A stretch of DNA of 64,000 nt from Clostridia bacterium 41_269 (GTDB lineage Bacteria; Bacillota; DTU086), in assembly GCA_001508005.1 (NCBI GenBank), contig LGEZ01000001.1:52392-116391 (forward strand). The letters run 5' to 3'. The notes under the pieces were generated by a model. It did no database searches, was not told where the DNA came from, and worked only from the letters and a program-made list of their open reading frames with translations. Positions 43,525-62,280 of this stretch are shown here, piece after piece. The translations under genes were made by a program, and so were the position numbers. Numbering within the stretch: position 1 is the first letter of the stretch; every line of letters starts with the position of its first letter.

Positions 43525-43551
43525 TAAAGTTTTTCTTATGTGTGCCGATAA
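43525..43551 (+). promoter_or_regulatory. Sigma-28 (SigD/FliA) promoter for the flgM late flagellar operon
   Basis: TAAAGTTT-N11-GCCGATAA is an exact match to the sigma-28 consensus and sits about 50 nt upstream of flgM. Confidence 0.8.
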
Positions 43552-43599
43552 CCTTTATAGAGACTGAAGATGTAAGAAATCTTAAGTTGGGTGATAGCG

Positions 43600-43899: not shown

Positions 43900-44405
43900 A
43901 GGGTATTGTAGAGGACCTTATTGGAATAACTTTGAAGCAGATTAGGTGTGTAAATGAGCTTATAAAGCTTGCAGAAGAAGAAACTGAAGCCCTTAAAAAG
44001 AATGATGTGCCGTTTCTTTCTAAGCTCTGCGTCAAAATGAATGAAGCGGCTCAAAAACTCTTGGAGCTTGAAGGGGAAAGGATGCAGGCTTGTGAAAAGC
44101 TTGCATCTTTTTTAGGTATTCCTGGGGACGCTCCATTCAGCGAGCTTAAAAAGGCTTTGTCCCAAAATGGCCAGGGTTCATTTGAAGAAATCGAGGAGCT
44201 GGTTGAAAAAACGGAGAGTTTGAAGCGGGCGTACGGCAGACTTCAGGATCAGAACAGACTTAACAGGCAGCTCCTTAAGCAGTCTTTGAGCTATATAAGA
44301 GGCCTTGAGGAAACCCTGGGTTTGCGAAAAGGGTCCATTTATGGAAAGGATGGGGAATACGAACGGATTTCAGAAGAGGGCACCCTCTTAAATAGGGAAG
44401 TTTGA
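43896..44405 (+). CDS. flgN: Flagellar export chaperone FlgN-like protein
   Basis: Position between flgM and flgK. Helical 169-aa protein, translationally coupled. Confidence 0.6.
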   Translation: MKGIVEDLIGITLKQIRCVNELIKLAEEETEALKKNDVPFLSKLCVKMNEAAQKLLELEGERMQACEKLASFLGIPGDAPFSELKKALSQNGQGSFEEIEELVEKTESLKRAYGRLQDQNRLNRQLLKQSLSYIRGLEETLGLRKGSIYGKDGEYERISEEGTLLNREV

Positions 44406-47106: not shown

Positions 47107-47568
47107 ATGAAAGTGGAAACCTCTCGCTTTGGCTGTATAGAAGTGGATGAAGATAAGATAATATATTTTCCGTGGGGCATCCCGGGTTTTGAAGATTTAA
47201 AAAAATATTTTCTTGTTCCTGTTAATGAAAATCCATTTTTTACATGGCTTCAGTCCTTTGATGATCCCAACGTTGCCTTTTTACTGGTTGATCCTTTTTT
47301 GTTTTTTGAAGGGTATGAAGTGGAACTTACGGAGGATGTTAAGAAGGAACTTGAGATTGAGGATCGAAAAGATATAATAATCCAGGCTGTCACCAATATC
47401 CCTAAAACAGGAGTGGAAAATGCCACAGCGAATTTAGTGGGGCCTATTGTTATAAATGTTAGGAAACGCCTCGGCAGGCAGGTTATCCTTCAGGATGTGC
47501 CCTACGGCATAAAACACCTTCTTTTTCCCAAGAAAAAGGAAGGGGACCGCAGAATTGCTGCCGGATAA
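47107..47568 (+). CDS. fliW: Flagellar assembly factor FliW
   Basis: DUF180/FliW sequence (IYFPWGIPGFEDLKKYFLVP...FLLVDPF), directly upstream of csrA. Confidence 0.85.
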   Translation: MKVETSRFGCIEVDEDKIIYFPWGIPGFEDLKKYFLVPVNENPFFTWLQSFDDPNVAFLLVDPFLFFEGYEVELTEDVKKELEIEDRKDIIIQAVTNIPKTGVENATANLVGPIVINVRKRLGRQVILQDVPYGIKHLLFPKKKEGDRRIAAG

Positions 47569-47599: not shown

Positions 47600-47840
47600 A
47601 ATGCTCGTGCTGACGAGAAAAAAAAACGAAACCGTAGTTATCGGCAGCGATATTTTTGTTACTGTGGTGGATGTTGACGGCGATAAGGTTAAACTCGGTA
47701 TTAATGCGCCTAGAGATATCTCCATATACCGTAAAGAAATTTATGATGCCATTGTTAGGGAAAATGTTTCCGCTTCAATGGCACAGCCTGAAGATGTAGA
47801 ACATATTATAAAACTTTCCAGGATTCAGCAAAAAGAGTAA
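47600..47840 (+). CDS. csrA: Carbon storage regulator CsrA
   Basis: [15 protein letters not shown]...[17 protein letters not shown], with an RBS before ATG 47600. Canonical position after fliW. Confidence 0.9.
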
Positions 47841-47882
47841 AAATTCCGGTTTAATGCTACGGAAAGGGGCACTTGTATTCCT

Positions 47883-50800
47883 ATGAGAAGAAAGAGAAGC
47901 CGGCTGGAATCACTGGGTTTTTTTATTTTTTTAACTGTAGTTTCCTTGTTTTGTCTATTAAATTTTGGTCCTTTTTGCGCCTATGGGGAGGAAACCCTCA
48001 GCATCGTTTCTGTTACTCCAGATAAAGTCAGCAACGATGGGGGACAGATTATAACCATTAAGGGAACGGGCTTTATGACCGGAATGAAGATCTACTTCAA
48101 CGATGTGCAGGTGGGCCCCGGCAGTATCAGCATTAAACTCAGCAGTATAGGATATGATACGGCAGAAGTGGTGGCTCCTCCCGGTAATACGGGTTATGTG
48201 AAAATAAAAGTGGAAGATCCCTCCAACCCAGATAATTATGCCGTTCTGTTAAACGCTTTTTGGTATCAAAGCACCCCCACCATAACCGGCATAAGTCCAA
48301 ATTCCGGCTCCACTGTGGGAGGAACGGTCATAACCATAACGGGAAGCGAGTTTGGTGAAGCCGGTTCCATGGGAAACAGCATAGAACTGTACATCGGTTC
48401 TACGCGGGTTCAGAATGTTACACTTGTCAATTCCACAACCATAACGGCGGTTACTCCTCCTTCAACCTTAGGGCCAAAGTCCATAACCCTGATAAATGCT
48501 GACGGCGGTACCTGCACGGTTCCTTCGACTTCTGCCAATGCATTTACATATGTTCCCAGCAGCCCAAGCATTACATCGGTATCCCCTTCGTACGGACCCA
48601 CCCTTGGGGGCACTGAGCTTACAATAACCGGGCAGGAATTCAGCGAAAACGCCAAGGTTAAAATAGGTGAGCACTGGGCGCAGACGGTAACCTATGTAAG
48701 CAGTACAAAGCTCATTGCCACAGCTCCTGCTTCTGAAAATGTGGGATTTGCGGACGTTTTGGTGGAAAACCCTGACGGTCAGACGGCCGTATTGGACGAT
48801 GCCTTTGAATATATAGCGGTTCCGGTTGTACAAAATATCACTCCCAACTATGGTCTTCCCGGTGAAGACAGGACAAGCAATCCCGTCGTCATCACCGGAG
48901 CAAACTTTGACCCTAGTGGGGTTAATGTGTACTTTGGCGGAAAAGAAGCTCAGGTTAATCTCAGCACTCTTACCAGCACGAGGATAGAAATAACGAAGCT
49001 TCCGGACGTTACGCCCGGAACGGTGGATGTAAAGGTTGTTAATTTCAGGAATTCGAGAGAAGAATACACCTTAAAAAGAGGATTTACTTTTAAAACTCAA
49101 ACGAGTCAGCCCGAGATTTACAGCATTGATCCCAATTCTGGAAGCACCGAGGAATATACGAGGGTAACCATTAAGGGTAAGGAGCTTCTTACCGGGGCAA
49201 CACTGTACGTAGGCGGTGAGCCGGTTCCCCTTGACGATGCGGAGTTCATAAGCACAAGCGAAGTGAAGGTGACCATTCCCCCATCGTCCAAAACTGGTGC
49301 CAAGGATGTAAAATGGGTTAACTACGACGGCGGAGAAGATACTTTAGAAAGCGGATTTATCCACATAAGACCAGAGGAACAGGTAAAAATAACGAGCGTT
49401 ACGCCCAACAGGGGGCCCGAGGACGAGCATACGCCCATAACCATAAGCGGTGTGAACTTCATGGATCCAAATGATCCCGATTTTGTCAGCTGTACCGTTA
49501 CCATAGGCGACGTGCTCGTTTTGGATTTGGAGTGGGTTGACAGCAGGACTTTAAGAGCAAAAACGCCCCTTGGCTATGTCAGGGAAGGGGAAACGGAAAC
49601 TTCCTGGGACGTTGTCATCGTGCAGGTTTACAAAGACAGCGAAGGGAATGAGATAGTCCAGAAATACGTTTTTGCAAACGGCTTTACTTATGTGCTTCCG
49701 GGAAGCAACCCCACAATAGCTGAGGTTTATGATTACGAAACCTTTAGGAAGAGTCATATAACCGTTAATTCCGGTCCCCTCTCGGGAGGAAACAGGGCAG
49801 TCATTGTTGGTACCGATTTCCGCACCCAAGGGTCAACCCTTCCGAAAGTTGAATTCGGCACGGGTTACAGCTGGCGCGAAGCTCAGGTACTTCAGGTGAT
49901 AACCATTTCTTCGTCCCAGAGCGAGCCGGATTACGAAAGGGGAATTCCTGCATACGAGAGCGGTGTGAAGGAAATGGCGCTTGTTGTGGAAGTGCCTGAA
50001 GGTTTTTCCACGGGAAGCGTTGATGTTAGGGTAACCAACCCGGATTTGGGAACGGCAGTTCTTAAAAACGGCTGGATTTATAAGGTGTGCAGCCTCAACG
50101 TGACCGCCATCACACCGAACAGAGGTCCCGTGACGGGCGGTATCGTGGTGGTGATAAGCGGTGCCAACTTTACCGAAGATTACTCCCTCTGGGTCAAATT
50201 TGTTCACAACTATGGAGACGGTTCAACTGATACCACCGTTGTGGAGAACATTATCGAGATCAGGGACAGCGCTGTAAGGTTTTACCTTCCCAGAAGCATT
50301 GAGGGTTTAAAAGACGTAGTTGTTTACAACCGCTTTGGAGAGAGAACATTAAAGAACGCTTTTACCTACTATGCTCCTTTAAGCACCCCTTCCATTTCTT
50401 CTGTTACTCCCAGTTCGGGCTCTTCTCTGGGCGGGGACACGGTTGTTATAACTGGTGAGGACTTCAGGGAAGGGGCTGTGGTTACCATAGGCGGAAGGGA
50501 AGCCACGGTTGTCAATGTGACATGGGATACCATTGAAATAATAACTCCTTCCGGCACCCCGGGCTTAAAAGATGTGGCAGTGAGAAATCCCGACGGCGGA
50601 TATGTGGTGCTGAAGGAGGGATTTAAATATATAAGCAGTCCCGAAGTGATCTCCGTACAGCCTTCCGTGGTTAGCGCATCGGGAGGCACCATCGTGACCA
50701 TAAAAGGAAAGCAGTTTTACAGCGGGGCTTCCGTGTATTTCAAAAGAGGGGAAGCTTTACTTCAAGCTCCTGACGTAAAGGTTGCTGACGAGAATACTAT

Positions 50801-53800
50801 TATAGCAAGGGTTCCTGCCGGAGATACAGGGACCTACGATGTAATTGTGAGAAACGTAGACTATGATGTGGGCACTGGCTTTGGGGAAGGAGTTTTAGAA
50901 GACGGTATTACTTTTTATGAACCGCCGTCCCTTCTGCCTGAAGTTGAAGGGGTTTACCCCAATTCTGCCTCTGAGGGAGGAGGAATTCCTGCTGTTGTAA
51001 CGGGGCAGAATTTTCAGCCGGGAGCAGTGGTATATTTCGGTCTTGAAGAAGCAAGGGTTCTGGAATATTTAGGCAGTGAAAGCATCAAAGTGCTTGTTCC
51101 TTCTAATTCTGAAGGAGAGTATTACATTACGGTAACGAACCCTGATGGCGGAACGGGAGTATCTGAAAGTGCCCTTTTCACATACAAAAAGGCTGTGACC
51201 TATCCTGAAATTATAAGCATTTCGCCTTCCGCGGGAAGCGTTGAGGGAAGCACATTTGTGGTGATAAGGGGCAAAAACTTTCGCACTGGAGCTGTGGTTT
51301 ACTTTGGAAGCCGGGAGGCATCTTCTGTGGTCGTTTCCCTTGAGGATACATCTGCTGGAATATATAAGATTACCTGTTTTACGCCTCCGGGATCCGTGGG
51401 CTTCGTTGATGTTATTGTTATGAATCCTCCAAGTTCTTACGGTGTGGCAGTTTTTGAGGACGGCTTTGAGTACAGGAGGCCTGCCAGCAGTCCCAAAATA
51501 AACTCCGTTATGCCTCCCAGCGGTCCCACTACAGGAGGCACTAAGGTTACCATTAAGGGAAGCGATTTTAGGACAGGAGTTAAAATATATTTTGACGGAA
51601 TATTGGCCCAAAGCGTAACCCTTGTGGATTCGGAAACCATAACTGCAGTTTCTCCGGCTCACGGTGCGGGAAAGGTTGCCGTGACTGTGGTTAATTACGA
51701 TGGGGGTTCCGATACTTACGGCGACAGCGCCGATGAGCTGGGATTTACCTATGCGCTACCCGCAAGCAGTCCCGAAGTGCACTCTGTGGATCCCAAATAC
51801 GGGCCTTCCTGGAAGGAAACCTGGGTAACCATATACGGCTTGGATTTCAGACCAGGGGCTAAGGTTTACTTCGGCTTTTTGGAATCTTCCCAAGTGGAAT
51901 ACATTGACTATCAAACTTTGCGTGCCCTTGCCCCTGCCCAGCCGAAAAGCACTGTTGACGTTACTGTGGTGAACGAAGATTATGGGACGGGCACTTTAAA
52001 GAACGCTTTTACATACAGGAGCTCGGCTCCCGAGATTGAATCAATTGCTCCGGAATTGGGAGACAAAAACGGCGGATACGAAGCTGTTATATACGGCAGT
52101 GAGTTTATCGTTGAATATGATGGAAGCGGAGAAACTATAGTCCTGTGCCCAAGAGTTTACTTTGAGCAGGGGACATTGAGGGCTGAAGCTGAAGTTCTTG
52201 TGGGTTCGGATTCGCAGTCGCTTTTAATTGTGGTTCCTGCTGCCCCAGGTGGTATTATTGGCTATTACGATGTGAGGGTGGTAAATCCCGATGGATCAGA
52301 AGCTGTCCTAAGCAAAGGATTTAAATACACGGTTTCCGCAAGCAGTCCCACAATAACTGGAGTTGAACCTCAAAAGGGTATTGTTTTGGGCGGCACCCCC
52401 ATAAAAATTTACGGTTCCGATTTCAGGGGTGAGGCTTTGGTTTTCATTGGAGGAAAGAAAGCTTTAAACGTTGTTGTGGTAAGTGAAGGATTAATAAGAG
52501 CGGTTACTCCGCCGCACAGTGCAGGCAAAAAAGACATTACCGTTGTCAATTACGACGGTGGCCGCTATACATTGGAAGATGCCTTTGAGTACGGCATGCC
52601 TTTAAGCGAGCCCATAATAACAAAAATTGAGCCTTCCAAGGGGCCCAGCACAGGAGGAACAAAAATTACCGTCACAGGAAGGGATTTTAGAGCCAATGCA
52701 TCCCTGTACATTGGCGGAGAGCCCTGTACTGATGTAGTGGTTGTGGATTACAAAACCATTACGGCAGTGACTCCTCCAGGAGAAGTGGGTAAGGCAGACG
52801 TTATAGTAATAAACGAAGACCTGGGCACAGCGGTTCTTCCAGGAGGATTTACCTACATTTATGTAGAGCCTCCAGTAGTTGAATCCGTGATTCCAAACCG
52901 AGGGCCCACTACGGGAGGTACCGAAATCATCATATCAGGAAGTAACTTTAAAAAAGGTGCCGTGGTCTATATAGGGGAAGCAAAAGCCGAAGTGAGAGAG
53001 GTTTCTTCTGATAAGATAACTGCGGTTACTCCTGCAGGAGGTCCAGGCTGGCATGATGTGATTGTGATTAATACGGACGGGGGAAAAGGAGTTCTTGAGG
53101 ATGCCTTTTACTACTACGAGCCAAGGACGGAACCTAGCACACCGAGCTGGCTTAAAGCGGAAGCCTTCGACGAGCGGACGGTGAAACTTTCTTGGGGAGA
53201 GGCAAAATTTGCTAACTACTTTGAAGTTTACGTCAGGGAAAAGGGAGACAACATCTTTAGATTTGTCGATCAAACGAAGAATGACGTTCACGAGTACTAT
53301 GTTACGGGACTGAAGCCTGGTACCCTGTATGTTTTTAAGGTGAGGGCTGTCAATGAGCTGGGTATTTCCCAGTTTACAGATACCGCTGAAGCAAGAACAA
53401 AATCTGGTGATGCTGATGAAGAAGCTGAAGAGGATAAAGAGAAGGCTCAGGAAAGGGTAAGGATAGAACACGGCCAGAATTCGGTTTTTGTCATCATACC
53501 CGGTGATAAGGCTCTTAAAAGAGAGGACTATATCTTTGATTTCAGCGGTGCTTCATATTACGGTGTAAAAACTTTTGTGCTGCAGGTCAGCGCGGATGCT
53601 GCAGGGGATATTGCAAAGGAAGTGACTGTGAGACTCAGCGGTGCGGAAATTACATTGCCCCCTGTGCTTTGGAACCTTTCTGAAGTGAAGTCTTTAAAGA
53701 GTTCGGATAGAAAAAATGCTCTTATCCGATTTAGGGTGTCCGATGCGGGGTACAGGGATGTAGAAAGCGCCCTTTCGGTTTTGCCCAAAGGGGCAAAGAT

Positions 53801-54053
53801 TGCAGGTAGAGCCCTTGCCGTAAGCGTAGACGTATGGAACAGAGGAGTGGTTCTGAAGCCTGCTGTTTACCCTGCTTCCATAAAAGTATTGTTTAAGATG
53901 GCTTCAACTTCATATTCATATGGCAGCTCCCTTTCTATATTAAGGTACGATACGTCGGGGAGCTGGCGTTATGATACTCAAGCGGTTGCTTCAACCTCGG
54001 GCGTTTATACCTATACGAAAGTCCCGGCAACACTTCTTCCTGTTTACCGGTAG
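47883..54053 (+). CDS. Giant secreted cell-surface protein, 2056 aa. Signal peptide, about 18 tandem IPT/TIG (Ig-like) domains, one fibronectin type III domain and an acidic Glu/Asp-rich segment. No SLH or LPXTG anchor.
   Basis: The N-terminal signal peptide is MRRKRSRLESLGFFIFLTVVSLFCLL. A roughly 100-aa repeat unit of the form I-T/S-x-[IV]-x-P-x-x-G-P/S-x-x-GGT-x-[IV]-T-I-x-G-x-x-F recurs about 18 times. The FN3 domain is LSWGEAKFANYFEVYV...YVFKVRAVN. The gene is co-directional with csrA and only 42 nt downstream, with no terminator between. Confidence 0.8.
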   Translation: MRRKRSRLESLGFFIFLTVVSLFCLLNFGPFCAYGEETLSIVSVTPDKVSNDGGQIITIKGTGFMTGMKIYFNDVQVGPGSISIKLSSIGYDTAEVVAPPGNTGYVKIKVEDPSNPDNYAVLLNAFWYQSTPTITGISPNSGSTVGGTVITITGSEFGEAGSMGNSIELYIGSTRVQNVTLVNSTTITAVTPPSTLGPKSITLINADGGTCTVPSTSANAFTYVPSSPSITSVSPSYGPTLGGTELTITGQEFSENAKVKIGEHWAQTVTYVSSTKLIATAPASENVGFADVLVENPDGQTAVLDDAFEYIAVPVVQNITPNYGLPGEDRTSNPVVITGANFDPSGVNVYFGGKEAQVNLSTLTSTRIEITKLPDVTPGTVDVKVVNFRNSREEYTLKRGFTFKTQTSQPEIYSIDPNSGSTEEYTRVTIKGKELLTGATLYVGGEPVPLDDAEFISTSEVKVTIPPSSKTGAKDVKWVNYDGGEDTLESGFIHIRPEEQVKITSVTPNRGPEDEHTPITISGVNFMDPNDPDFVSCTVTIGDVLVLDLEWVDSRTLRAKTPLGYVREGETETSWDVVIVQVYKDSEGNEIVQKYVFANGFTYVLPGSNPTIAEVYDYETFRKSHITVNSGPLSGGNRAVIVGTDFRTQGSTLPKVEFGTGYSWREAQVLQVITISSSQSEPDYERGIPAYESGVKEMALVVEVPEGFSTGSVDVRVTNPDLGTAVLKNGWIYKVCSLNVTAITPNRGPVTGGIVVVISGANFTEDYSLWVKFVHNYGDGSTDTTVVENIIEIRDSAVRFYLPRSIEGLKDVVVYNRFGERTLKNAFTYYAPLSTPSISSVTPSSGSSLGGDTVVITGEDFREGAVVTIGGREATVVNVTWDTIEIITPSGTPGLKDVAVRNPDGGYVVLKEGFKYISSPEVISVQPSVVSASGGTIVTIKGKQFYSGASVYFKRGEALLQAPDVKVADENTIIARVPAGDTGTYDVIVRNVDYDVGTGFGEGVLEDGITFYEPPSLLPEVEGVYPNSASEGGGIPAVVTGQNFQPGAVVYFGLEEARVLEYLGSESIKVLVPSNSEGEYYITVTNPDGGTGVSESALFTYKKAVTYPEIISISPSAGSVEGSTFVVIRGKNFRTGAVVYFGSREASSVVVSLEDTSAGIYKITCFTPPGSVGFVDVIVMNPPSSYGVAVFEDGFEYRRPASSPKINSVMPPSGPTTGGTKVTIKGSDFRTGVKIYFDGILAQSVTLVDSETITAVSPAHGAGKVAVTVVNYDGGSDTYGDSADELGFTYALPASSPEVHSVDPKYGPSWKETWVTIYGLDFRPGAKVYFGFLESSQVEYIDYQTLRALAPAQPKSTVDVTVVNEDYGTGTLKNAFTYRSSAPEIESIAPELGDKNGGYEAVIYGSEFIVEYDGSGETIVLCPRVYFEQGTLRAEAEVLVGSDSQSLLIVVPAAPGGIIGYYDVRVVNPDGSEAVLSKGFKYTVSASSPTITGVEPQKGIVLGGTPIKIYGSDFRGEALVFIGGKKALNVVVVSEGLIRAVTPPHSAGKKDITVVNYDGGRYTLEDAFEYGMPLSEPIITKIEPSKGPSTGGTKITVTGRDFRANASLYIGGEPCTDVVVVDYKTITAVTPPGEVGKADVIVINEDLGTAVLPGGFTYIYVEPPVVESVIPNRGPTTGGTEIIISGSNFKKGAVVYIGEAKAEVREVSSDKITAVTPAGGPGWHDVIVINTDGGKGVLEDAFYYYEPRTEPSTPSWLKAEAFDERTVKLSWGEAKFANYFEVYVREKGDNIFRFVDQTKNDVHEYYVTGLKPGTLYVFKVRAVNELGISQFTDTAEARTKSGDADEEAEEDKEKAQERVRIEHGQNSVFVIIPGDKALKREDYIFDFSGASYYGVKTFVLQVSADAAGDIAKEVTVRLSGAEITLPPVLWNLSEVKSLKSSDRKNALIRFRVSDAGYRDVESALSVLPKGAKIAGRALAVSVDVWNRGVVLKPAVYPASIKVLFKMASTSYSYGSSLSILRYDTSGSWRYDTQAVASTSGVYTYTKVPATLLPVYR

Positions 54054-54076
54054 CGGCAAAATTATCTTCAAGGGAG

Positions 54077-56590
54077 ATGGGCAGGGTGAAAGCAAAGAAT
54101 TTTAAAGTCTTTTTCACGGCTTTTGTTTTACTTGCGATATTCTGGTGCGGGGAGTTTTTCCTTGAGGCAGAGGTTGCAGAAGGCACTTCATATACCCAGT
54201 ATAGAGGTGTAAGCTACGGAGAAAAGTACCTCTCTGCCATAAAGTTTAGGGACGTGGGAAGTCACTGGGCCAAGGTGCCTATATATCGCTCTGCTGCACA
54301 GGGCCTGATATTCGGATACGGCAGCGGGTATTTCCGCCCGAATTCTCCCGTTACTAGAGAAGAAGCTGCTGCCATGCTTGTGCGCTTAAAGGGAGTAGGC
54401 GGAGATGACCTCCAAAATAATGGGGGTACAGGGGGTTCATGGGCATCTCCCCATCTTCAGGTTGCCTTGGATGAGGGCATCATAACAGAGCAGGAAAAAA
54501 GTGCAATGGAAAAAAATCCGGGAAGATATGCCCAAAGACAGCAGGTGGCAGCTTGGGCGGCAAAAGTTCTTGAATTGGAGCCCGACTACAGCATAGGATA
54601 TCAGCTTCTCCGTTCCTTTAAGGACTGGCAGAAAATAACTTCGGAATACACTCCCTTTGTAGCCGCTTCTGTAAGGGAAGGGGTTTTTGCCGGCAGTGCA
54701 TCTGGCTACTTTAAGCCCAATGCTTCTATATCTAGGGGAGAGATGGCTGCGGTTTTGGACAGGCTGAGCCAACGACTGGCTGAAGATAGGGGGTTGGTTT
54801 TTGCTGAGGGCAAGGTAACGGGAAGCGAGGCGTATTGGGAGGAAACTCCATCGGGACGGAAAAAGAAGGTTGAAGTTATGGTGCAGAAGAGCTCCGGAGA
54901 AACGGTGCTCATAAAAAGCGGCGGAACTGACGGGGATTACCCCGTATACAGAGGAGGAAAGCTGGGACTCAGTGATCTGCTGAAGAGCGGGGATTACGTA
55001 AAAATGGTCCTCACGGAAAACGGAGAGGTGCTTTTCGTCGAGGTTTCCGCATCAGCCTCTCGGGCGCTTACGGGCACTTTTGTGGGGCTTGACCTTGACG
55101 GAAAGAAAATCTACATAAGGGATTTCCAAGGTAAAGATCTTGTTCTTCCCATTCAGTTGCCCCTGGGGGTTACCATAAACGGAATGGGGGTTGAGCCGCA
55201 GGACCTGATTCCCGGGCAGGAGGTTTCCCTAACCGTTAAAGGAGGGGCTGTCACGGCAGTTGCGGGAATCCTTGACAAGATTCCCGATATTTATGGTGAG
55301 AGCCGCAGGGAAGTGGTTGAGGGAGTTGTCAAAAATGTGAGCTCCTCCGGGGATGAGATAACCGTTGCCTCCGGAAACAGACAGCTGACTTTTAGAATTG
55401 ATTCCCGAACTGCCGTAATTAAGAGGGGAACTCCCTACTCTCCCAAGTGGATAAAAGCAGGGGACAGCGTCAAGGTACAAACGGTGGGCGGCGGATATGC
55501 TTCAAGGGTTGAAGTGTTTTCGGGTGAAAAAACGGCTGCAGGCATTATTAGGGGAAGAATTGAGGGTGTCAGCTCATCTTCGGGAAGGATTGTTTTAAGC
55601 GGCGTGGAAAGATATTTTTACGGCGGATGGTACGCTGACACGGGCTCCCTCGTTCTTAAAGTTTCACCCAATGCAGAGATTTACGATATAAGCGGGCGCG
55701 TAGATGTCAACTGGCTCGAGAAGTCTGCAGCGGGAAGGGAGATTTACGCTGTTATTGCTGAAAGCTTTGGATCGCCGGAAGCCCAGAGCATTTATGTAAA
55801 GAGCGGATACTCGGAAAGCAGAAGCGGACTTGTGGACGAAATTGACTTTTCTACTGCCCGTATGTACCTTGAAGACGGATTCGGCGGCATAATCATCGGT
55901 CCGCAGACTTCGGTGGTGCGAAACGGCAGGCTTATAAGCGTGGAAGATGTGGAGGAAGGGGCTTCCGTTTTTGTGGAAACCGACAGGGTTTCTGGAGAGG
56001 AGTACGGTGCCTTCATCCTTTGGGATGATTTCATACCGACAGGGTGGAGCTTAATAAGGGGTGAAATAGATGAAGTGGACGACGGAGAAATAACGTTGAG
56101 CTCCTACAGCTTATTTGACGACAATGATTGGGACGAGCCCAGTTCCTCTTCAAAAGATAGAGATCTTGAAGTTTCAACAGAGGCTGTGATCATCGACGCT
56201 GTAGATCCTCAAAACCCCAAAACACTGGAACCCGAAGACTTCTTCTACACCAGGTTTACAAGTGATTATGAAAACAAATTTGCCGTTGCTCTTGTGTACG
56301 ATGATCTCGTAAAGGGATTGGTCATTTTGGATGGTGAGCCTAGCGGTGATAGAACCAGCATCGGCGTGGTCAGTTCCGCTTCGGGCGGTAAAATAAATAT
56401 CGATAGGGTTAGGGACTGGAGCTCGCCCGTTGGGGAGTGGAAGGTAAACCGTTATTCCGTAAGCCTCAGTATAAAGGGGGCAGCCGTAGTGAGAAAGGGA
56501 GAGGTTTATGCAGGCACGGGTGTGCGCTCCGGAGACACCGTTTTCGTGCTTCATGATATGAACAGCGTTCATGTGGTATTCGTTCAGTGA
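54077..56590 (+). CDS. SLH-domain cell-wall-anchored protein (three N-terminal SLH modules plus repeated small beta-domains). The start may be GTG 54086.
   Basis: SLH motifs (FRDVGSHWAKVPIYRSAAQGLIFGYGSGYFRPNSPVTREEAAAMLVRL; ...ISRGEMAAVLDRL) follow a signal-anchor N-terminus. 837 aa. Confidence 0.75.
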   Translation: MGRVKAKNFKVFFTAFVLLAIFWCGEFFLEAEVAEGTSYTQYRGVSYGEKYLSAIKFRDVGSHWAKVPIYRSAAQGLIFGYGSGYFRPNSPVTREEAAAMLVRLKGVGGDDLQNNGGTGGSWASPHLQVALDEGIITEQEKSAMEKNPGRYAQRQQVAAWAAKVLELEPDYSIGYQLLRSFKDWQKITSEYTPFVAASVREGVFAGSASGYFKPNASISRGEMAAVLDRLSQRLAEDRGLVFAEGKVTGSEAYWEETPSGRKKKVEVMVQKSSGETVLIKSGGTDGDYPVYRGGKLGLSDLLKSGDYVKMVLTENGEVLFVEVSASASRALTGTFVGLDLDGKKIYIRDFQGKDLVLPIQLPLGVTINGMGVEPQDLIPGQEVSLTVKGGAVTAVAGILDKIPDIYGESRREVVEGVVKNVSSSGDEITVASGNRQLTFRIDSRTAVIKRGTPYSPKWIKAGDSVKVQTVGGGYASRVEVFSGEKTAAGIIRGRIEGVSSSSGRIVLSGVERYFYGGWYADTGSLVLKVSPNAEIYDISGRVDVNWLEKSAAGREIYAVIAESFGSPEAQSIYVKSGYSESRSGLVDEIDFSTARMYLEDGFGGIIIGPQTSVVRNGRLISVEDVEEGASVFVETDRVSGEEYGAFILWDDFIPTGWSLIRGEIDEVDDGEITLSSYSLFDDNDWDEPSSSSKDRDLEVSTEAVIIDAVDPQNPKTLEPEDFFYTRFTSDYENKFAVALVYDDLVKGLVILDGEPSGDRTSIGVVSSASGGKINIDRVRDWSSPVGEWKVNRYSVSLSIKGAAVVRKGEVYAGTGVRSGDTVFVLHDMNSVHVVFVQ

Positions 56591-56602
56591 TTGGGGTGGT
56601 AA

Positions 56603-58183
56603 ATGTTGATTTGTGCGCTGTCAAAGGTGAAAAAATTGGCGTCTTATGCTCTGATTTTCTTTATCGGAATTTATGCGGTTTTTCTCGGTACACCTGGAGC
56701 TTTTGCCGCGGAGGACCCCAGAAACACCGAAGGGGGAGTGTACAACGACAGCGAGTATCAGGAAATTCTTTTCATCACGGGTAAGCCAGTAATTCTTAAA
56801 GGCACCGTAAAGTCCAGCGGAGGAGCGGGACGCAGCGGCAGGGGCACTTATACGTCTTCGGTCAACTTTACTTTGGAAAATGCCGATGAGGGTATAAAAC
56901 TTACCCGCAGGATATCCTTCACAACCACGGAGGAGAAAAGGGACAGGCAAACTGTGACCGTGACGAAGGTTAATTCCTTTTCCGAGTCCATAAAGGTTGG
57001 GGAGCGAACCTACACCCTTAAAGATTTTACCTTCAGCAAATCCGTCATCACCGATGACAGACCTGCGGTGGACTACTTTTCTGGAAACTGGAGCGCCAGA
57101 AAGGTTTACGAAACCGACAAAGGTGCTGGGCAGCTTGTGGTGGATATAATCGGCGAGACCGTAGGCTACGACAGCTTCTGGGGAAGCACCGAAACCCAAA
57201 GGGTATCGGGGAGCCTGAACTTTGAGGGGAAGGTTACTGTTGGTGAAGCCGTGTATGAAGACGAGTGGGGTGGTACCTTTGCCTTTGACGCAACCTACAA
57301 CAGAATCAAGGAAGTTACCTATGAAGAAAACGATCCTCAGTACATAAGCTTTCCCGGCGGATTCGTTCTCACGGAAAACACCGACCACTACGTGAGGTAT
57401 ACTGCAAGGCTTCCCGAGTTTGACGAAAGCGGTATTTCTACGAGCGGATGGGAGCAGTATTCGGGCAGTTTGAGCCTGTCAGGTGCTCCCTCATACAAGA
57501 GGCTTCCTACTCACTACTTCAGGGATATGGGAAGCCACTGGGCAAGAAGCGATGCGGAACTGCTCTACGGTCTCGGAGTGCTGGACAGGGGAGAATATTT
57601 CGGTCCCACTGTGCCCATGACCCGTGGAGAATTTGCTCGCATGCTGGCAAGGGCGCTGGGGCTGGTTTCTTCGGATGAGGGAAGTGCACAGAACGGCAGG
57701 ACCGTTAAAAGAACCATAGGTGTGAGTCTTCCTTGGGGCGGATTCGGCGGAACGGCAGGCCGTGAGGAAGAGAAGCTTTTCCACGATGTCCCCAGCGACC
57801 ACCCCTATTACAGTGAAATTAAAGCCGTGTACGAAAGCGGCATCATAAAGGGTACGGGAAACGGTTATTTCTCTCCGGGAGAGAAGCTTACCAGGGCACA
57901 GGCTTTGACCATATTCATAAGGGCTCTAGGGTTTGACCACATTCCCCTTGCTTCGTACCTTCTGGATGCTTACAGGGATGCTTCCCAGATTCCCAAATGG
58001 GCTGTAAATTCCGTTTTTCTGGCAGCGGAAATAGGGCTGGTGGAAGGAAACAGTTACGGGTACCTCCTTCCCAACAGCGTCCTCACCAGAGCGGAAGCTG
58101 CTTCCCTTCTTACCAGGTTTATAACATACATGCAGAAGGATTTGAGGACAGAGTACAGGGACAGGCTGCTGGGCTACCGCTGA
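56603..58183 (+). CDS. Secreted protein with three C-terminal SLH modules
   Basis: Signal peptide (ASYALIFFIGIYAVFLGTPGAFAAE). C-terminal SLH motifs (FRDMGSHWARSDAELLYGLGVLDRG...TRGEFARMLARAL; FHDVPSDHPYY...TRAQALTIFIRAL; ...TRAEAASLLTRF). Confidence 0.75.
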   Translation: MLICALSKVKKLASYALIFFIGIYAVFLGTPGAFAAEDPRNTEGGVYNDSEYQEILFITGKPVILKGTVKSSGGAGRSGRGTYTSSVNFTLENADEGIKLTRRISFTTTEEKRDRQTVTVTKVNSFSESIKVGERTYTLKDFTFSKSVITDDRPAVDYFSGNWSARKVYETDKGAGQLVVDIIGETVGYDSFWGSTETQRVSGSLNFEGKVTVGEAVYEDEWGGTFAFDATYNRIKEVTYEENDPQYISFPGGFVLTENTDHYVRYTARLPEFDESGISTSGWEQYSGSLSLSGAPSYKRLPTHYFRDMGSHWARSDAELLYGLGVLDRGEYFGPTVPMTRGEFARMLARALGLVSSDEGSAQNGRTVKRTIGVSLPWGGFGGTAGREEEKLFHDVPSDHPYYSEIKAVYESGIIKGTGNGYFSPGEKLTRAQALTIFIRALGFDHIPLASYLLDAYRDASQIPKWAVNSVFLAAEIGLVEGNSYGYLLPNSVLTRAEAASLLTRFITYMQKDLRTEYRDRLLGYR

Positions 58184-58195
58184 TACCGAAAAGTC

Positions 58196-58236
58196 AAAGA
58201 GCCCCGAAGTATTTTTTTCGTCGGGGCTCTTTTTTA
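58196..58236 (+). terminator. Rho-independent terminator ending the flgM...SLH transcription unit
   Basis: AAAGAGCCCCGA-agtattttttt-CGTCGGGGCTCTTT followed by TTTT. Confidence 0.8.
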
Positions 58237-58251
58237 GGAAGAAGCCCCTTC

Positions 58252-58281
58252 TTGACATCGAACATATGTTCCCTGTATAAT
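58252..58281 (+). promoter_or_regulatory. Sigma-A promoter with an embedded LexA (Cheo/SOS) box
   Basis: TTGACA-N18-TATAAT. The spacer contains CGAACATATGTTCC (58259-58272), matching the Gram-positive LexA box consensus CGAAC-N4-GTTCG. Confidence 0.75.
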
Positions 58282-58320
58282 TGCTTTGGGAAGTCATATT
58301 AAGGGAGGGGGAGAAGAGGG

Positions 58321-58628
58321 TGAGGGGCAATACCCTTTGGGAGGGGCACAGGGTCGTAGTTTCCGAGCTCAGGCAGGGCATAGCCCGAACCAAAAGGGAG
58401 GCGGAGGCTGAAGACCCGCCCTTTCTGCCCGATGAAAGAATTGCGGAGATTGAGACGGTCTTAAGGGAAGCCGCCTCTGCCCAAAGGCCTGTGGAGGTAA
58501 CCTATTTCAACGGAGAGAAAAGGGTGAAAGTTTTGGCGAAAAAAGTTTCCTTTCCCGGAAACGGCGTGGTGCAGCTGGATGCCGTAAGGGTTCACTACAC
58601 CATGATAACCGATGCCCGCTTTTGTTAA
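58321..58628 (+). CDS. YolD-like protein (SOS-mutagenesis accessory family), orphan with no adjacent Y-family polymerase
   Basis: VRGNTLWEG...LPDERIAEIETVLREA...VEVTYFNGEK...VQLDAVRVHYTMI parallels the B. subtilis YolD layout (RGNIKW ... EE..L.E ... V.VKLYNG ... F.DIVSI). An AGGGAGGGGGAG RBS precedes GTG 58321. A LexA box lies in its promoter. Confidence 0.5.
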
Positions 58629-58698
58629 TGCCGTCGGGCAGGAATTTTGTGCACGGCATAGAAAAGGTAATCGTAATTAGATTTTGGGAGGGGATTTT

Positions 58699-59463
58699 TT
58701 GAATCTTCTTGAAGTAAGAAATCTGACCCTTAAAAAGGGAGAAAACGAAATACTCAAAAAGGTCAATCTGATCCTTGAACCTGGTGAAGTCCATGCGGTT
58801 ATCGGTCCCAACGGTGCCGGCAAAAGCAGCCTTGCCTATACCATTATGGGCCTTGAGGGTTACAGTCCAAAAGAAGGCAAGATTTTCTTTGAAGGAGAAG
58901 ATATCACAAACCTTCCCATAAACGAAAGGGCCAAAAGGGGCCTTACCCTTGCATGGCAGGAGCCCGCACGCTTTGAAGGTATTACCGTGGAGCAGTATTT
59001 AAAAATAAGCACCAACGGGTCCAAGCAGTACAGTTCCAGTGGTATTGAGCTTCCCCGGCTGACGCCCGAGGAAGCTCTTCTGAAGGTCGCCCTTAATCCC
59101 GAAAAGTACCTTAAGAGAAAGGTGGACAAAGGTTTAAGCGGCGGCGAAAGAAAGCGCGTGGAACTTGCATCCATCCTGCTCATGCGCCCCAAAGCCGTGA
59201 TTTTGGACGAGCCTGATTCGGGAATTGACACGGTGGCCATTGAGAAAATTTTTGAGATAATAGAGGAGTTTAAGAGACTCGGGATCGGGGTGCTTCTCAT
59301 TACCCACTCCCACAAAATGCTGGAAGCGGCTGACTGCGCTACCCTCCTTTGTTCCGGTTTTGTGGTCAAAACGGGGTCCCCTGAGGAAGCGGCGGAATAC
59401 TACAACGTCCGGTGCCTTCCCTGCCCCAGTGAAGTGTATCCCCAGGAGGAGGAAAAGATATGA
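58699..59463 (+). CDS. sufC: Fe-S cluster assembly ATPase SufC
   Basis: ABC ATPase with Walker A GPNGAGKSS, signature LSGGERKR and Walker B ILDEPDSGID. The SufC-typical N-terminus LLEVRNLTL follows TTG 58699 behind a GGGAGGGG RBS. Confidence 0.8.
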   Translation: MNLLEVRNLTLKKGENEILKKVNLILEPGEVHAVIGPNGAGKSSLAYTIMGLEGYSPKEGKIFFEGEDITNLPINERAKRGLTLAWQEPARFEGITVEQYLKISTNGSKQYSSSGIELPRLTPEEALLKVALNPEKYLKRKVDKGLSGGERKRVELASILLMRPKAVILDEPDSGIDTVAIEKIFEIIEEFKRLGIGVLLITHSHKMLEAADCATLLCSGFVVKTGSPEEAAEYYNVRCLPCPSEVYPQEEEKI

Positions 59464-60398
59464 ACGATTTTGAAAAAATGGTGGAAGCGTACGAAAGCTC
59501 AGGGGGACAGCCTGAAGCATTCAAGGACAGCGATGTTGCCCACCTGGTGGTTGCCGAAAACAGAGTCCTTGGGGCTCACCTTGTCCCGGGGCTGAACATG
59601 GACGTGGAAGAAACCGAAAAGGGGATAAGGGCGCTTTTGGTTGTTGAAGAGGGGGCGAAAATAAAGAAACCTGTTCACCTGTGCTTTGGGGTCCTCCCTG
59701 AAGAAGGAATCCAGCGGATAGAAATGCGGGTTGAAGTAAAGGACGGCGGGAGCGTATCCGTAACTGCCCACTGCGTTTTTCCCAATGCGGTTAAGGTAAA
59801 GCATCTGATGGATGCGGAAATAGTGGTTGGAAATAATGCCAGGTACGAATACCGAGAAACCCACTTTCATGGAAACTTCGGCGGCGTTGAGGTTATCCCC
59901 AGGGCGAAAATAGTCCTTGGGGAGAACAGCGCATTGAAGTCTTTCTTCGGTTTGCCGAAGGGAAGGGCAGGTGTGGTGGATATTGACTACGATGCCGAGG
60001 TCGGCGCCAATTCTGTTATGGAGCTTTTGGCAAGGGTGAACGGTTACGGAAACGACAGGATTAAGATCAGGGAAGCGGGCTGCCTGAAGGGCGACGGCTC
60101 CAGGGGGCTCCTTGAGAGCAAAATCGCCCTGAAGGACGAAGCCCGGGCTGAGGTTTTCAATGAGATTGTTGCCCTTGGCGCAAAGGCGTGGGGACACGTA
60201 GACTGCACGGAGATCATAAGGGACAGGGCCTTTGCCAAAGCCGTTCCCGTAGTGGACGTGCGCCACCCAGAAGCAAGGGTCACCCACGAAGCTGCCATAG
60301 GCGGCGTGAACAAGACCCAGCTGGAGACCCTCATGGCAAGGGGGCTTTCTGAGGAGGAAGCTACGGAGATGATCGTTCAGGGGCTTCTTCAGGGCTGA
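59460..60398 (+). CDS. SufB/SufD-family Fe-S cluster assembly scaffold protein (short form)
   Basis: The SufBD beta-helix C-terminal region is present. The gene is translationally coupled to sufC. 312 aa. Confidence 0.65.
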   Translation: MNDFEKMVEAYESSGGQPEAFKDSDVAHLVVAENRVLGAHLVPGLNMDVEETEKGIRALLVVEEGAKIKKPVHLCFGVLPEEGIQRIEMRVEVKDGGSVSVTAHCVFPNAVKVKHLMDAEIVVGNNARYEYRETHFHGNFGGVEVIPRAKIVLGENSALKSFFGLPKGRAGVVDIDYDAEVGANSVMELLARVNGYGNDRIKIREAGCLKGDGSRGLLESKIALKDEARAEVFNEIVALGAKAWGHVDCTEIIRDRAFAKAVPVVDVRHPEARVTHEAAIGGVNKTQLETLMARGLSEEEATEMIVQGLLQG

Positions 60399-60487
60399 TT
60401 GTTTTATCTCTCTAAGAATCAAAGGAAAGCTTCTAAACGTGCCGGCTCAAAAAAAAAGGCTTTGGGTTTTTTGTTCCCAAAGCCCCT

Positions 60488-60766
60488 TTACCTTTCTATC
60501 CTGAAGCCGCAAAAATCACCTGTGGGTTCTTTCCACTCTGTCTCTATTCCCGTGATGTGCCCCACTCCGCTGTTTTCTATTACTTCCAGCAGTTTATTTA
60601 AAGCCTCAGGCTCTCCTTCTGCTGTTATTTCTACCCTTCCGTCGTCGAGATTCTTAACGAATCCCGTAAGCCCGAGGCTTTCGGCGGCACTGCGCACGAA
60701 GTACCTCATCCCAACACCCTGTACTCTGCCTTGCAGGTACGCACAAAGCCTCTTTTTTTCTTCCAC
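60488..60766 (-). CDS. acyP: Acylphosphatase
   Basis: Acylphosphatase signature (VQGVGMRYF...GFVKNLDDGRVEI). 92 aa. Confidence 0.8.
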   Translation of the reverse strand: MEEKKRLCAYLQGRVQGVGMRYFVRSAAESLGLTGFVKNLDDGRVEITAEGEPEALNKLLEVIENSGVGHITGIETEWKEPTGDFCGFRIER

Positions 60767-60833
60767 TGCCTATACCCCCTCTTTACAATTATATTTTTCC
60801 TAAAAAAATTCGTCAAAATTTTCCCCTTTCCCC

Positions 60834-60861
60834 TAAAGAATGGTTTTCCCCTTTCCGATAT
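60834..60861 (+). promoter_or_regulatory. Sigma-D/sigma-28 promoter for flagellin
   Basis: TAAA-N17-CCGATAT lies about 95 nt upstream of the flagellin ATG. Confidence 0.65.
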
Positions 60862-60914
60862 GAGAAATAGAGAAGCTTCTCTATGCCTTTCCCAGCGGCC
60901 GCGAGGAAAGGAAT

Positions 60915-60954
60915 CGGCATGGATGCCGAAATAAAAAATTCAGGGAGGAATGGG
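60915..60954 (+). promoter_or_regulatory. Candidate CsrA binding sites in the flagellin leader (GGA-loop hairpin plus a GGA-containing Shine-Dalgarno)
   Basis: CGGCA-TGGA-TGCCG hairpin with GGA in the loop (60915-60928), and AGGGAGGAATG at the RBS (60941-60951). The arrangement resembles the BS1/BS2 sites of the B. subtilis hag leader. Confidence 0.5.
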
Positions 60955-60955
60955 A

Positions 60956-62221
60956 ATGAGAATTAACCACAATATCTCAGCGTTAAACACCTATCGTCAG
61001 TTGTCGATTAACAACTCGATGGCGGCTAAGTCGCTGGAGAAATTGTCCTCGGGCCTCAGGATCAACCGTGCTGGCGATGACGCGGCGGGCCTGGCCATCA
61101 GCGAGAAGATGCGGGCGCAGATTCGCGGGCTGGAGATGGCTTCCAAGAATGCCCAAGATGCTATCTCGCTCATCCAAACAGCAGAGGGCGCACTGAACGA
61201 AACCCACTCCATCCTGCAGCGGATGCGGGAACTGGCCGTCCAATCAGCCAGCGATACGAATACCGCCGTTGACCGGTCGGAAATACAGAAAGAAATAGAT
61301 CAGCTTGCACAAGAACTTGCCCGGATTGGCAATACTACCGAATTCAACACCCAGAAACTCTTGAATGGCACTTTCAAGGGAACCTTCCACATAGGAGCCA
61401 ATGAAAATCAGAACCTTTCACTGCAGATTAAAGATATGAGAGGTTATGCCCTGGGTGTAGTGGGTGATGTGACCTATACTGCTACTGGAACGGTTACTAA
61501 TACAAACAATAGCTTCAGCGCTGGCACCTACGCGGTAAAGTACGACTCCGCTAACAACAAATACCAGCTCGTTGACAGCAACGGTCTAGTGATTGCCGAA
61601 AGTAGTGATGGTGAGACATACACTGCCAAAGCTAACACTAGCGACACGATTCAGTTCGCAGATAAAGTTATCAGCGGTACGGTGACAATTTCCACCGATG
61701 GTACCAATTGGACGGCCACCGGAACCGCGACAGTAACCAACCAAGGATTGGAAGCTGGGACATACACTTATATTAAATCAACGGGCGAGCTTAAGGACTC
61801 CAGCGGCCAAGTCGTCGCCAAATCCTCGGATGGTCAAACCTTTAAAGATGCAGCCGGAAACACGCTCTTTACTTTAGGTGCAGCTGTTACTGCCGATACC
61901 ACATTTGAAGTGAAGGGAGTCGACGTATCGAGTCAGCAAACGGCCAATAATGCCATTACCACCATCAATAACGCCATCGAGAAAGTATCTGCCGAGCGCT
62001 CCAAGCTGGGCGCCTACCAGAACCGCCTGGAGCACACTATCAACAACCTGGGCACTGCTTCCGAAAACCTAACCGCTGCCGAGTCCCGCATCCGCGACGT
62101 GGATATGGCCAAGGAAATGATGGAGTTCACCAAGCTCAATATCCTCCAGCAGGCAGCAACGGCCATGCTCGCCCAGGCCAACATGCAGCCGCAGATGGTC
62201 CTCCAACTCCTCGGTCGGTAA
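60956..62221 (+). CDS. hag: Flagellin (FliC/Hag)
   Basis: MRINHNISALNTYRQL...GLRINRAGDDAAGLAISEKMRAQIRGL N-domain and conserved C-domain (QNRLEHTINNL...ILQQAATAMLAQANMQPQMVLQLL). The ATG at 60956 sits behind a GGAGG RBS. The coding sequence is markedly GC-rich relative to the genome. Confidence 0.9.
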   Translation: MRINHNISALNTYRQLSINNSMAAKSLEKLSSGLRINRAGDDAAGLAISEKMRAQIRGLEMASKNAQDAISLIQTAEGALNETHSILQRMRELAVQSASDTNTAVDRSEIQKEIDQLAQELARIGNTTEFNTQKLLNGTFKGTFHIGANENQNLSLQIKDMRGYALGVVGDVTYTATGTVTNTNNSFSAGTYAVKYDSANNKYQLVDSNGLVIAESSDGETYTAKANTSDTIQFADKVISGTVTISTDGTNWTATGTATVTNQGLEAGTYTYIKSTGELKDSSGQVVAKSSDGQTFKDAAGNTLFTLGAAVTADTTFEVKGVDVSSQQTANNAITTINNAIEKVSAERSKLGAYQNRLEHTINNLGTASENLTAAESRIRDVDMAKEMMEFTKLNILQQAATAMLAQANMQPQMVLQLLGR

Positions 62222-62232: not shown

Positions 62233-62280
62233 GACAGGGGCAGGGTGGTATTGCCATCCTGCCCCTGCTCTTCTTTTTTT
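62233..62280 (+). terminator. Rho-independent terminator after flagellin
   Basis: AGGGGCAGG-gtggtattgccatc-CTGCCCCTG followed by CTCTTCTTTTTTT. Confidence 0.8.

Follow-up and report, generated by a model that had tools for sequence, protein, structure and literature searches.

Probable inherited gene order of independent units between csrA and hag in the flagellar region of Clostridia bacterium 41_269

The late flagellar region of Clostridia bacterium 41_269 was analysed in a window of 64,000 nucleotides (nt) of contig LGEZ01000001.1, the whole stretch of DNA to which the coordinates below refer. In this window csrA and the flagellin gene hag are separated by 13,115 nt (approximately 13.1 kb), as the first-pass annotation of the DNA had stated, and the interval carries a gene for a giant IPT/TIG-repeat protein, two genes for SLH-domain proteins (SLH1 and SLH2), a yolD-like gene, a sufC-like and sufBD-like pair, and an acylphosphatase gene (acyP) on the opposite strand. 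It is probable that this interval represents an inherited, clade-specific order of independent units, in which the TIG-SLH-SLH gene set (hereafter the trio) is the tail of the late flagellar operon and hag is regulated in trans. The apparent break in the textbook gene order would then be ancestral, compositionally unremarkable against its neighbours and harmless to the FliW-CsrA-flagellin circuit. The link between the trio and the operon is favoured because the order csrA-TIG-SLH-SLH is conserved in the relatives represented by loci L004, L013, L093 and L094.

Judged from FliW homologs, the window belongs to an isolated lineage, the nearest named relatives of which are Moorella and Neomoorella at about 50–54% identity. 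The comparison of synteny, which the first-pass annotation had regarded as a check on its proposal of an insertion or a lineage-specific expansion, revealed the same order in the four loci named above, at 46–56% FliW identity. The arrangements found in the relatives are as follows.

L006, the closest relative (FlgK 92% identical): csrA-yolD-sufC-sufBD-acyP (minus strand)-hag, without the trio
L004 (FlgK 69%): csrA-TIG-SLH-SLH
L094 (FlgK 54%): cheB-flgM-flgN-flgK-flgL-fliW-csrA-TIG-SLH-SLH-sufC-sufBD-hag
L092 (same or similar species as L094): TIG-SLH-SLH-sufC-sufBD-hag, followed by Maf and sugar genes
L093 (SLH1 32%): csrA-TIG-SLH-SLH, followed by a toxin-antitoxin pair and sugar genes
L013 (a Moorellales metagenome-assembled genome, MAG; FliW 46%): csrA-TIG-SLH-SLH
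L007 (Neomoorella glycerini), L096 and L097/L098, a sister clade: trio between flgL and fliW
L095 and L100 (SLH1 approximately 23–26% identical): trio surrounded by housekeeping genes, or next to genes for an AraC regulator and an MCP

The junctions of the trio with flgL and fliW in L097 measure 13 nt and 20 nt. Searches based on SLH1, which are not biased towards flagellar genes, recovered trios embedded among flagellar genes in L092/L094, L093, L096 and L097, and trios located elsewhere in L095 and L100; a metagenome scan with a four-sequence alignment yielded two loci. L099 was too short to inform the comparison. In the SLH1 and SLH2 trees the variants located after csrA and before fliW form two separate clades, and therefore a single rearrangement suffices. 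By their sequence identities, the trio proteins are seen to diverge in step with the flanking flagellar proteins, with values of 63% for TIG, 69% for FlgK and 66% for CheA in L004, and of 35% for TIG and 43% for FlgK in L013. Because of the shared order, the split in the trees and the parallel divergence, the place of the trio in the late flagellar operon appears to be ancestral to this deep clade. The absence of the trio from L006 would most simply be a loss; no informative deletion scar was found there, the csrA-yolD spacer of L006 aligning with the window only at the csrA 3' end and the yolD promoter.

The other genes of the interval are distributed differently. The sufC-sufBD pair directly 5' of hag is common to the window lineage, L006, L092 and L094; yolD and acyP, the latter on the minus strand, are shared with L006 only and are absent from L092 and L094. 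The yolD-suf-acyP segment has its own history, since its parts are shared with different relatives. Hence, of the proposal of a lineage-specific arrangement, the clade-restricted order stands, while the interval is neither one block nor special to this genome, being ancient and clade-wide.

Two further loci were noticed in the vicinity of trio genes or their sites. In Moorella thermoacetica DSM 21394 (L010, 8106–9629) a different SLH protein of 507 residues is encoded between flgL and fliW, the position taken by the trio in the sister clade; it resembles SLH2 in the SLH domains alone. Directly 3' of the trio in L095 lies a gene for an M1-family peptidase (13242–14702), a homolog of which is found at 301–1674 of the window (29% identity, E 5e-40); its position at the left edge, 46 kb from the trio, is probably a coincidence.

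The reading of the interval as a recent horizontal insertion, in which a GC-rich surface-protein island of approximately 13 kb landed between csrA and hag, draws on the composition of the block and on the lack of the trio in the closest relative, L006. The block is indeed richer in guanine and cytosine (GC), with 0.492 against 0.407 for the first 37 kb, but this richness is not confined to it, the flanks being already high. Change points were sought over the window and 6.4 kb of the downstream contig, with a log-likelihood ratio of at least 20 required for further splits. The single best change point is located at 41,120, inside cheA and 6.7 kb upstream of the interval, with GC contents of 0.410 to the left and 0.479 to the right; no additional split reached the threshold over this range, neither at 47.8 kb nor at 60.9 kb. 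The segment from cheA to csrA (40.2–47.8 kb) has a GC content of 0.46 before the interval begins, and that from 60.9 to 70.4 kb one of 0.471. High values are thus seen in hag and for 9 kb or more beyond it, in a stretch that includes adhE and fliD/fliS/flgBC. The compositional steps that had been placed by eye at the interval borders are thus absent, and the GC and codon-usage profile, once computed, contains no shift at either csrA or hag. The GC content at synonymous third codon positions (GC3) of the gene sets is as follows.

Left-hand genes (0.3–37 kb): 0.368
Chemotaxis and late flagellar genes: 0.448
TIG-SLH-SLH trio: 0.480
yolD-suf-acyP: 0.576
hag and downstream flaG/fliD/fliS/flgB/flgC: 0.538
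adhE: 0.546

The synonymous-codon choice of the trio is nearest to that of the two flanking sets of flagellar genes (distances 0.085 and 0.087), and much of the raw GC excess of the TIG gene occurs at codon position 2 (0.449), that is, it reflects amino-acid composition. What the composition does reveal is a GC-rich domain, 29 kb or more in length, over the whole chemotaxis-flagellar region. This domain extends from about 41,120 to at least 70,400 (followed through L088), has a GC content of 0.479 against 0.410 and synonymous GC3 values of 0.45–0.58 against 0.37, and spans cheA onward, including the flagellar genes, adhE and flgBC; L004 and L006 have similar values in the same genes.

Genes for mobility were also not found. 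All ORFs (open reading frames) of the block are accounted for by Pfam, with no integrase or transposase among them; the window contains no tRNA genes, the interval borders have no repeats, all repeats found being internal to the TIG gene, and a search of the whole window returned no Rfam families. With the same order and co-divergence in relatives down to 46% FliW identity, and with an interval that divides into units of separate history, the insertion reading has been largely refuted already and retains next to no likelihood.

The gene calls and coordinates of the first-pass annotation for the interval were confirmed by Pfam and NCBIfam searches and ORF calls. The genes and signals of the interval and its flanks are listed below.

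43525–43550, plus strand: sigma-D-type promoter TAAA-N16-GCCGATA upstream of flgM, the predicted start of the late flagellar operon
43591–43899, 43896–44405, 44422–45951 and 45970–47100, plus strand: flgM, flgN, flgK and flgL, from ORFs and the Pfam families of identical genes in L001
47107–47568, plus strand: fliW (Pfam FliW, 136 bits)
47601–47840, plus strand: csrA, 79 aa from ATG 47601, as in public annotations (Pfam CsrA, 87.5 bits)
47841–47882, plus strand: csrA-TIG spacer of 42 nt without a terminator-like site
47883–54053, plus strand: gene for the giant secreted IPT/TIG-repeat protein, 2056 aa
54077–56590, plus strand: SLH1 gene, 837 aa, with a signal-like N-terminus, an SLH triplet and a chain of small OB-like beta-barrels
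56603–58183, plus strand: SLH2 gene, 526 aa, with a conserved N-terminal domain of about 300 aa and a C-terminal SLH triplet (Pfam SLH, 3 stretches)
58197–58236, plus strand: terminator-like hairpin and U-run (fold −22.6 kcal/mol, z −2.64)
58252–58281, plus strand: perfect sigma-70-type promoter TTGACA-N18-TATAAT with a LexA/Cheo box in the spacer (58259–58271)
58320–58628, plus strand: YolD-like gene, 102 aa from GTG 58320; likewise 102 aa in the public annotation
58684–59463, plus strand: sufC-like ABC ATPase gene (Pfam; nearest NCBIfam family sufC)
59460–60398, plus strand: gene for a SufBD-core protein of 312 aa (Pfam SUFBD_core, 61 bits), overlapping the sufC-like gene by 4 nt
60488–60766, minus strand: acylphosphatase gene (Pfam, 78 bits), convergent with sufBD
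60834–60860, plus strand: sigma-D-type promoter TAAA-N17-CCGATA of hag, kept in L006, L092 and L094
60914–60929, plus strand: hag leader hairpin UCGGCA-uGGA-UGCCGA from folding, with GGA in the loop, predicted CsrA site-1-like
60942–60949, plus strand: Shine-Dalgarno sequence AGGGAGGA, containing GGA, predicted CsrA site-2-like, 6 nt before ATG 60956
60956–62221, plus strand: flagellin gene hag, 421 aa (Pfam Flagellin_N, 161.7 bits; Flagellin_C, 110 bits)
62235–62277, plus strand: strong intrinsic terminator 3' of hag, with a 15-bp stem and 10 GC pairs

The flagellin belongs to the NCBIfam family flagellin Hag (370 bits, cut-off 352). The longest csrA ORF begins at GTG 47577 and encodes 87 residues, so that the fliW-csrA gap is 9–33 nt, depending on the choice of csrA start. 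An assembly artefact was ruled out, as independent assemblies agree across both interval junctions, namely L001, L002 and L003 at the csrA-TIG junction and L088–L091 at the sufBD-acyP-hag junction. The window sequence also matches GCA_003510095.1 ("Peptococcaceae bacterium") and GCA_001507705.1 ("Clostridia bacterium 41_269").

The interval is not one block. It consists of two or more modules that are independent of each other, each having transcription signals of its own and its own pattern of presence and absence in relatives. The pattern TAAA-N14-17-CCGATA has exactly two matches in the window (0.48 expected), one 5' of flgM and the other 5' of hag. A terminator-like site was looked for at the csrA-TIG junction and none was present in the 42-nt spacer; the equivalent spacers of L004, L094, L093 and L013 measure from 18 to about 90 nt. 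Because of the short gaps and the missing terminators, we infer that the trio is co-transcribed with the late flagellar genes. The first predicted unit would run from flgM through csrA and on via TIG, SLH1 and SLH2 to the hairpin and U-run at 58197–58236, which is predicted to close the csrA-TIG-SLH-SLH part at approximately 58.2 kb. The second predicted unit would start at the LexA-box promoter and include the yolD-like, sufC-like and sufBD-like genes, while the third and fourth are predicted to be the acylphosphatase gene on the other strand and a monocistronic hag with its own promoter and strong terminator. Control of the TIG gene by CsrA was considered and dropped, as the GGA near its Shine-Dalgarno sequence is the ordinary Shine-Dalgarno sequence itself and a hag-type hairpin is absent.

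To the first-pass annotation the interval looked like an insertion, or a lineage-specific expansion, into a regulatory hotspot, but no disturbance of the circuit was detected, since hag retains its own sigma-D-type promoter and a conserved CsrA-type leader. In Bacillus subtilis CsrA represses hag via two leader sites, one of which overlaps the Shine-Dalgarno sequence, and FliW antagonises CsrA through the CsrA C-terminal extension (PMC7652899). Both fliW and csrA are present and paired in the window, and the encoded CsrA extends C-terminally past the Pfam CsrA core, which ends at residue 59 of the 87-residue ORF. The hag leader contains the two GGA sites of the arrangement described in PMC7652899, one overlapping the Shine-Dalgarno sequence, and an A-rich spacer joins the hairpin to the latter. 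This design is conserved with compensatory stem changes in L006, L092 and L094; of the 13 loci compared, 12 were found to have it and the thirteenth, L094, shows it on visual inspection, irrespective of a csrA distance that ranges from direct adjacency to 13 kb. The canonical Bacillus position of csrA directly upstream of flagellin does not occur here, but it is a common feature rather than a mechanistic requirement. Adjacency is not needed because the circuit works by diffusible proteins and a conserved mRNA leader, and the partner switch is accordingly predicted to be intact and to act in trans: CsrA would repress the separately transcribed hag, and FliW would relieve this repression.

The frequency of the adjacency itself was estimated from 80 species-representative fliW loci, of which 72 were informative; the loci were ranked by FliW similarity to the query and include several congeners, so the proportions are rough. 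Canonical adjacency of csrA and hag does occur, though not in every species: flagellin lies within 500 nt of csrA in 37 of the 72 species loci and not in the other 35. In six loci flagellin is 0.5–3 kb from csrA, in five 3–10 kb, in one it is on the opposite strand, and in 23 it was not found within the available 3–9.8 kb. Such separation is typical of Selenomonadales, Atribacterota and Moorella. Two cautions follow, that raw GC should not be judged by eye, and that Bacillus synteny is not universal, about half of the sampled FliW-bearing species having no csrA beside flagellin.

Variable cargo often separates csrA from flagellin in other Clostridia. In N. glycerini it consists of a Phd/ParE pair and NeuB-type sugar genes, and in L093 of a Polbeta/HepT pair and sugar genes. 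These sugar and toxin-antitoxin genes of the relatives have lower GC3 than their neighbours, whereas in the window neither the trio nor the suf-like pair departs in composition from the adjoining flagellar genes, and both keep a conserved position. The surroundings of flagellin in L007 (10905–18719), L093 (10489–18765) and L092 (13278–17826) hold toxin-antitoxin pairs, pseudaminic/legionaminic-type sugar genes and Maf, and these low-GC3 segments resemble genuine variable islands more closely than any part of the window does. Other variations were observed in the sample: in L080 (10001–11195) flagellin directly follows fliW and there is no csrA match, in L067 (13327–14453) the csrA-flagellin pair is followed 3 kb further on by another, and L096 (18396–19439) has an ORF for a LAGLIDADG endonuclease between flagellin and flaG.

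All three trio proteins have signal-like N-termini. In the TIG protein the signal-like segment is followed by Pfam TIG matches in 16 stretches (609.6 bits) and one fn3 domain (39 bits), and the NCBIfam CoaZ repeat is found in 11 stretches; the C-terminal 207 aa match no Pfam family, and no vWFA family is among the Pfam matches at E≤1e-3. SLH1 and SLH2 have the features of SLH anchors, namely Pfam SLH triplets and visible hydrophobic N-termini, and the TRAE-type motifs read in them are TREE, SRGE, TRGE, TRAQ and TRAE. The structure model of SLH1 matches the SLH domains 6bt4 and 6cwc, which bind secondary cell wall polymer. At E≤1e-3 the SLH1 family comprises 213 cluster representatives out of 1.84 billion, a number that falls to 45 at E≤1e-30, and most members keep the same architecture of 820–900 aa; a word-indexed homolog search with SLH1 returned three true orthologs among 12 matches, the rest being generic SLH proteins. 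SLH2 is the best-conserved member of the trio, with orthologs 34–53% identical over the full length; the word-indexed search with its N-terminal domain found one protein. An AF2 model of SLH2 from two sequences had a pLDDT of 44 and was unusable, and the all-beta character of the N-terminal domain is seen in that low-confidence model only. The simplest reading of the trio is a wall-anchored fibre or scaffold, composed of two SLH anchors and a long Ig-repeat stalk.

The late flagellar operon would thus be transcribed from the sigma-D-type promoter 5' of flgM through flgM-flgN-flgK-flgL-fliW-csrA-TIG-SLH-SLH to the terminator near 58.2 kb, and the trio would probably be produced along with the hook-filament junction proteins and the regulators of the filament. 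Following Sec-dependent export, the SLH proteins would anchor to the cell-wall polymer, most likely as part of a wall-anchored fibre or scaffold in the motile phase, which, to judge from the Paenibacillus proteins CmoA and SlhA, would serve motility on surfaces or adhesion.

Several observations weigh against this interpretation. The closest relative, L006, keeps its flagellar genes and has no trio at this position, while in L095 and L100 the trio is found at a site without late flagellar genes; because of both, the trio is neither required for flagella nor dependent on them. A gene order that related lineages have inherited lends no independent support to a function. The case for co-transcription is read from sequence, from short gaps and absent terminators, and a near-consensus sigma-70-type match inside fliW (TTGAGA-N16-TATAAT, 11/12, at 47351–47378) could, judged by consensus, drive csrA and the trio without sigma-D. 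The fold of SLH1 provides wall anchoring and no other functional clue.

Some of these observations are what would be expected if the trio were an ordinary S-layer-associated module with no tie to motility, its position being an inherited accident that nothing selects against. Distant family members in non-flagellar contexts (L095 and L100) and the loss in L006 are consistent with such neutral hitch-hiking, all flagellar-embedded cases may stem from one or two ancestral events, and other unrelated genes occur inside the supercluster (the suf-like pair, acyP, adhE and toxin-antitoxin pairs). However, the linkage has outlived a rearrangement of the trio relative to fliW-csrA, with the trio remaining in the same operon, and the intergenic gaps stay operon-like (13–42 nt); in addition, proteins of this type can be important when cells move over surfaces by flagella, as CmoA and SlhA show (PMC5072692, PMC3776848). 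Hitch-hiking is therefore regarded as unlikely.

Very unlikely, in our estimation, is a structural role in the flagellum itself, in which the trio would form a wall-anchored collar, bushing or stator scaffold around the rod and hook. It would explain the position of the trio among the genes of hook-associated proteins, and is in agreement with its occurrence at two different positions within the late flagellar operon over a deep divergence, with the anchoring to wall polymer supported by the SLH1 model, and with the different SLH protein in the same slot of M. thermoacetica; set against it are the flagella-bearing gene set of L006 without a trio and the uninformative fold of SLH1 mentioned above. 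As a more speculative extension of the preferred reading, that of an inherited order with the trio at the operon tail, the trio might tentatively be considered an undescribed accessory flagellar module of Moorellales-like Clostridia: a sigma-D-controlled wall-anchored fibre or scaffold on which the cell relies for flagellum-dependent activities, for instance when it moves over surfaces or partner cells or attaches to them, or even a motor component at the level of the envelope. In that case a lineage-specific addition to the flagellum would exist in Gram-positive thermophilic anaerobes, much as other phyla have extra disks and collars. That the trio is kept within the late flagellar operon throughout a deep clade, cultivable Neomoorella among its members, provides a testable and modestly novel lead; if a tie to motility is established, the list of lineage-specific flagellar accessories would extend to thermophilic anaerobic Bacillota.

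The second module is headed by the perfect sigma-70-type promoter, the spacer of which carries a LexA/Cheo box, CGAACATATGTTC. The CGAACNNNNGTTC box has a single match in the window (0.19 expected), and the promoter and box are base-for-base identical in L006, the YolD-like protein of which is 84% identical. The YolD-like ORF scores 26.8 bits with Pfam YolD (gathering score 27.5), and its start must be GTG 58320, because TTG 58281 lies within the −10 box. No Y-family polymerase gene was found next to this solitary gene, which is followed after 55 nt by the SufC-like/SufBD-like pair (window 58252–60398; L006 5950–8085). The SufC-like ATPase scores 192.5 bits with NCBIfam sufC, below the cut-off of 212.8, and the 312-aa SufBD-core protein scores 77 bits with SmsB (cut-off 650), 51.8 with sufD (222) and 51.1 with sufB (346). 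By these scores, the pair has a family-level relation to the SUF and SMS systems and is not a certified member of either. The promoter context is a hint that a minimal SUF-like Fe-S pair is expressed in connection with the SOS response.

Downstream of hag, an adhE-type gene coding for an 871-aa bifunctional aldehyde/alcohol dehydrogenase is located on the minus strand (L088 13623–16238, approximately 63082–65697 in window coordinates). It separates hag from flaG-fliD-flaG-fliS-flgB-flgC-fliE and represents a further non-flagellar interruption of the flagellar supercluster. The left flank (17326–36867) contains genes for a NiFe-hydrogenase and Fe-S subunits on the minus strand, a FapA-family gene (24226–26097), a gene for an Mrp/ApbC-like ATPase, degS-degU (27457–29251) and a complete Tad/Flp pilus cluster (29703–36867) directly 5' of MCP-cheW-cheA-cheB. 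As the Tad/Flp cluster adjoins the chemotaxis genes, motility, pilus and surface genes are clustered in a single region. Further to the left, the PAS/HisKA part and a separate HATPase_c part of apparently one split gene occupy adjacent ORFs (13306–14531), and an AMP-binding enzyme is apparently split into two ORF pieces (15638–17074); these may be frameshifts, pseudogenes or consensus errors of the MAG.

No description of a TIG-SLH-SLH trio, or of the MAG that the window matches, was found in the literature searched, and functional precedents are limited to single proteins of aerobic Paenibacillus. CmoA of Paenibacillus sp. NAIST15-1 is a secreted protein of 1,064 aa with a vWFA and eight TIG domains, the gene of which neighbours flaG-fliD-fliS. 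Its induction accompanies that of flagellar genes, and without it flagella are still formed but do not move the cells on hard agar (PMC5072692). Like CmoA, the TIG protein of the window is a large Sec-exported protein of tandem IPT/TIG domains encoded in a flagellar region, the comparison being one of shared domain type only. CmoA has no dedicated SLH partners and its gene lies after flaG-fliD-fliS, whereas the TIG protein has 2,056 aa, at least 16 TIG domains and an fn3 domain with no vWFA match, and its gene sits after csrA (in the sister clade, after flgL), always followed by two conserved SLH genes.

SlhA of Paenibacillus alvei is SLH-anchored and required for swarming, flagellation being unaffected by its loss (PMC3776848). 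It differs from the SLH proteins described here in its length of 1,335 aa and its C-terminal SLH motifs, and has not been reported in a flagellar operon; in SLH1 the SLH motifs are N-terminal and a series of OB-like barrels follows, and SLH2 begins with a conserved domain of 300 aa that is particular to it. Sap and SpaA are other SLH-anchored surface proteins with which they may be compared. Unlike CmoA and SlhA, the trio has another domain make-up and represents a three-gene set inside the flgM-csrA operon of anaerobic Moorellales-like Clostridia. Wall and surface proteins are included in the sigma-D regulons of B. subtilis and Clostridioides difficile (PMC3865298).

The regulatory circuit of the window resembles that of B. 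subtilis in the order flgM-flgN-flgK-flgL-fliW-csrA, in having sigma-D-type promoters 5' of both flgM and hag, in the hag leader with its GGA-loop hairpin and GGA Shine-Dalgarno sequence, and in a CsrA C-terminal extension of the FliW-regulated type. It differs in the 13.1 kb between csrA and hag, in the nine kilobases of surface-protein genes appended to the predicted csrA transcript, and in the separate SOS-type unit located between csrA and hag; the circuit is here predicted from sequence.

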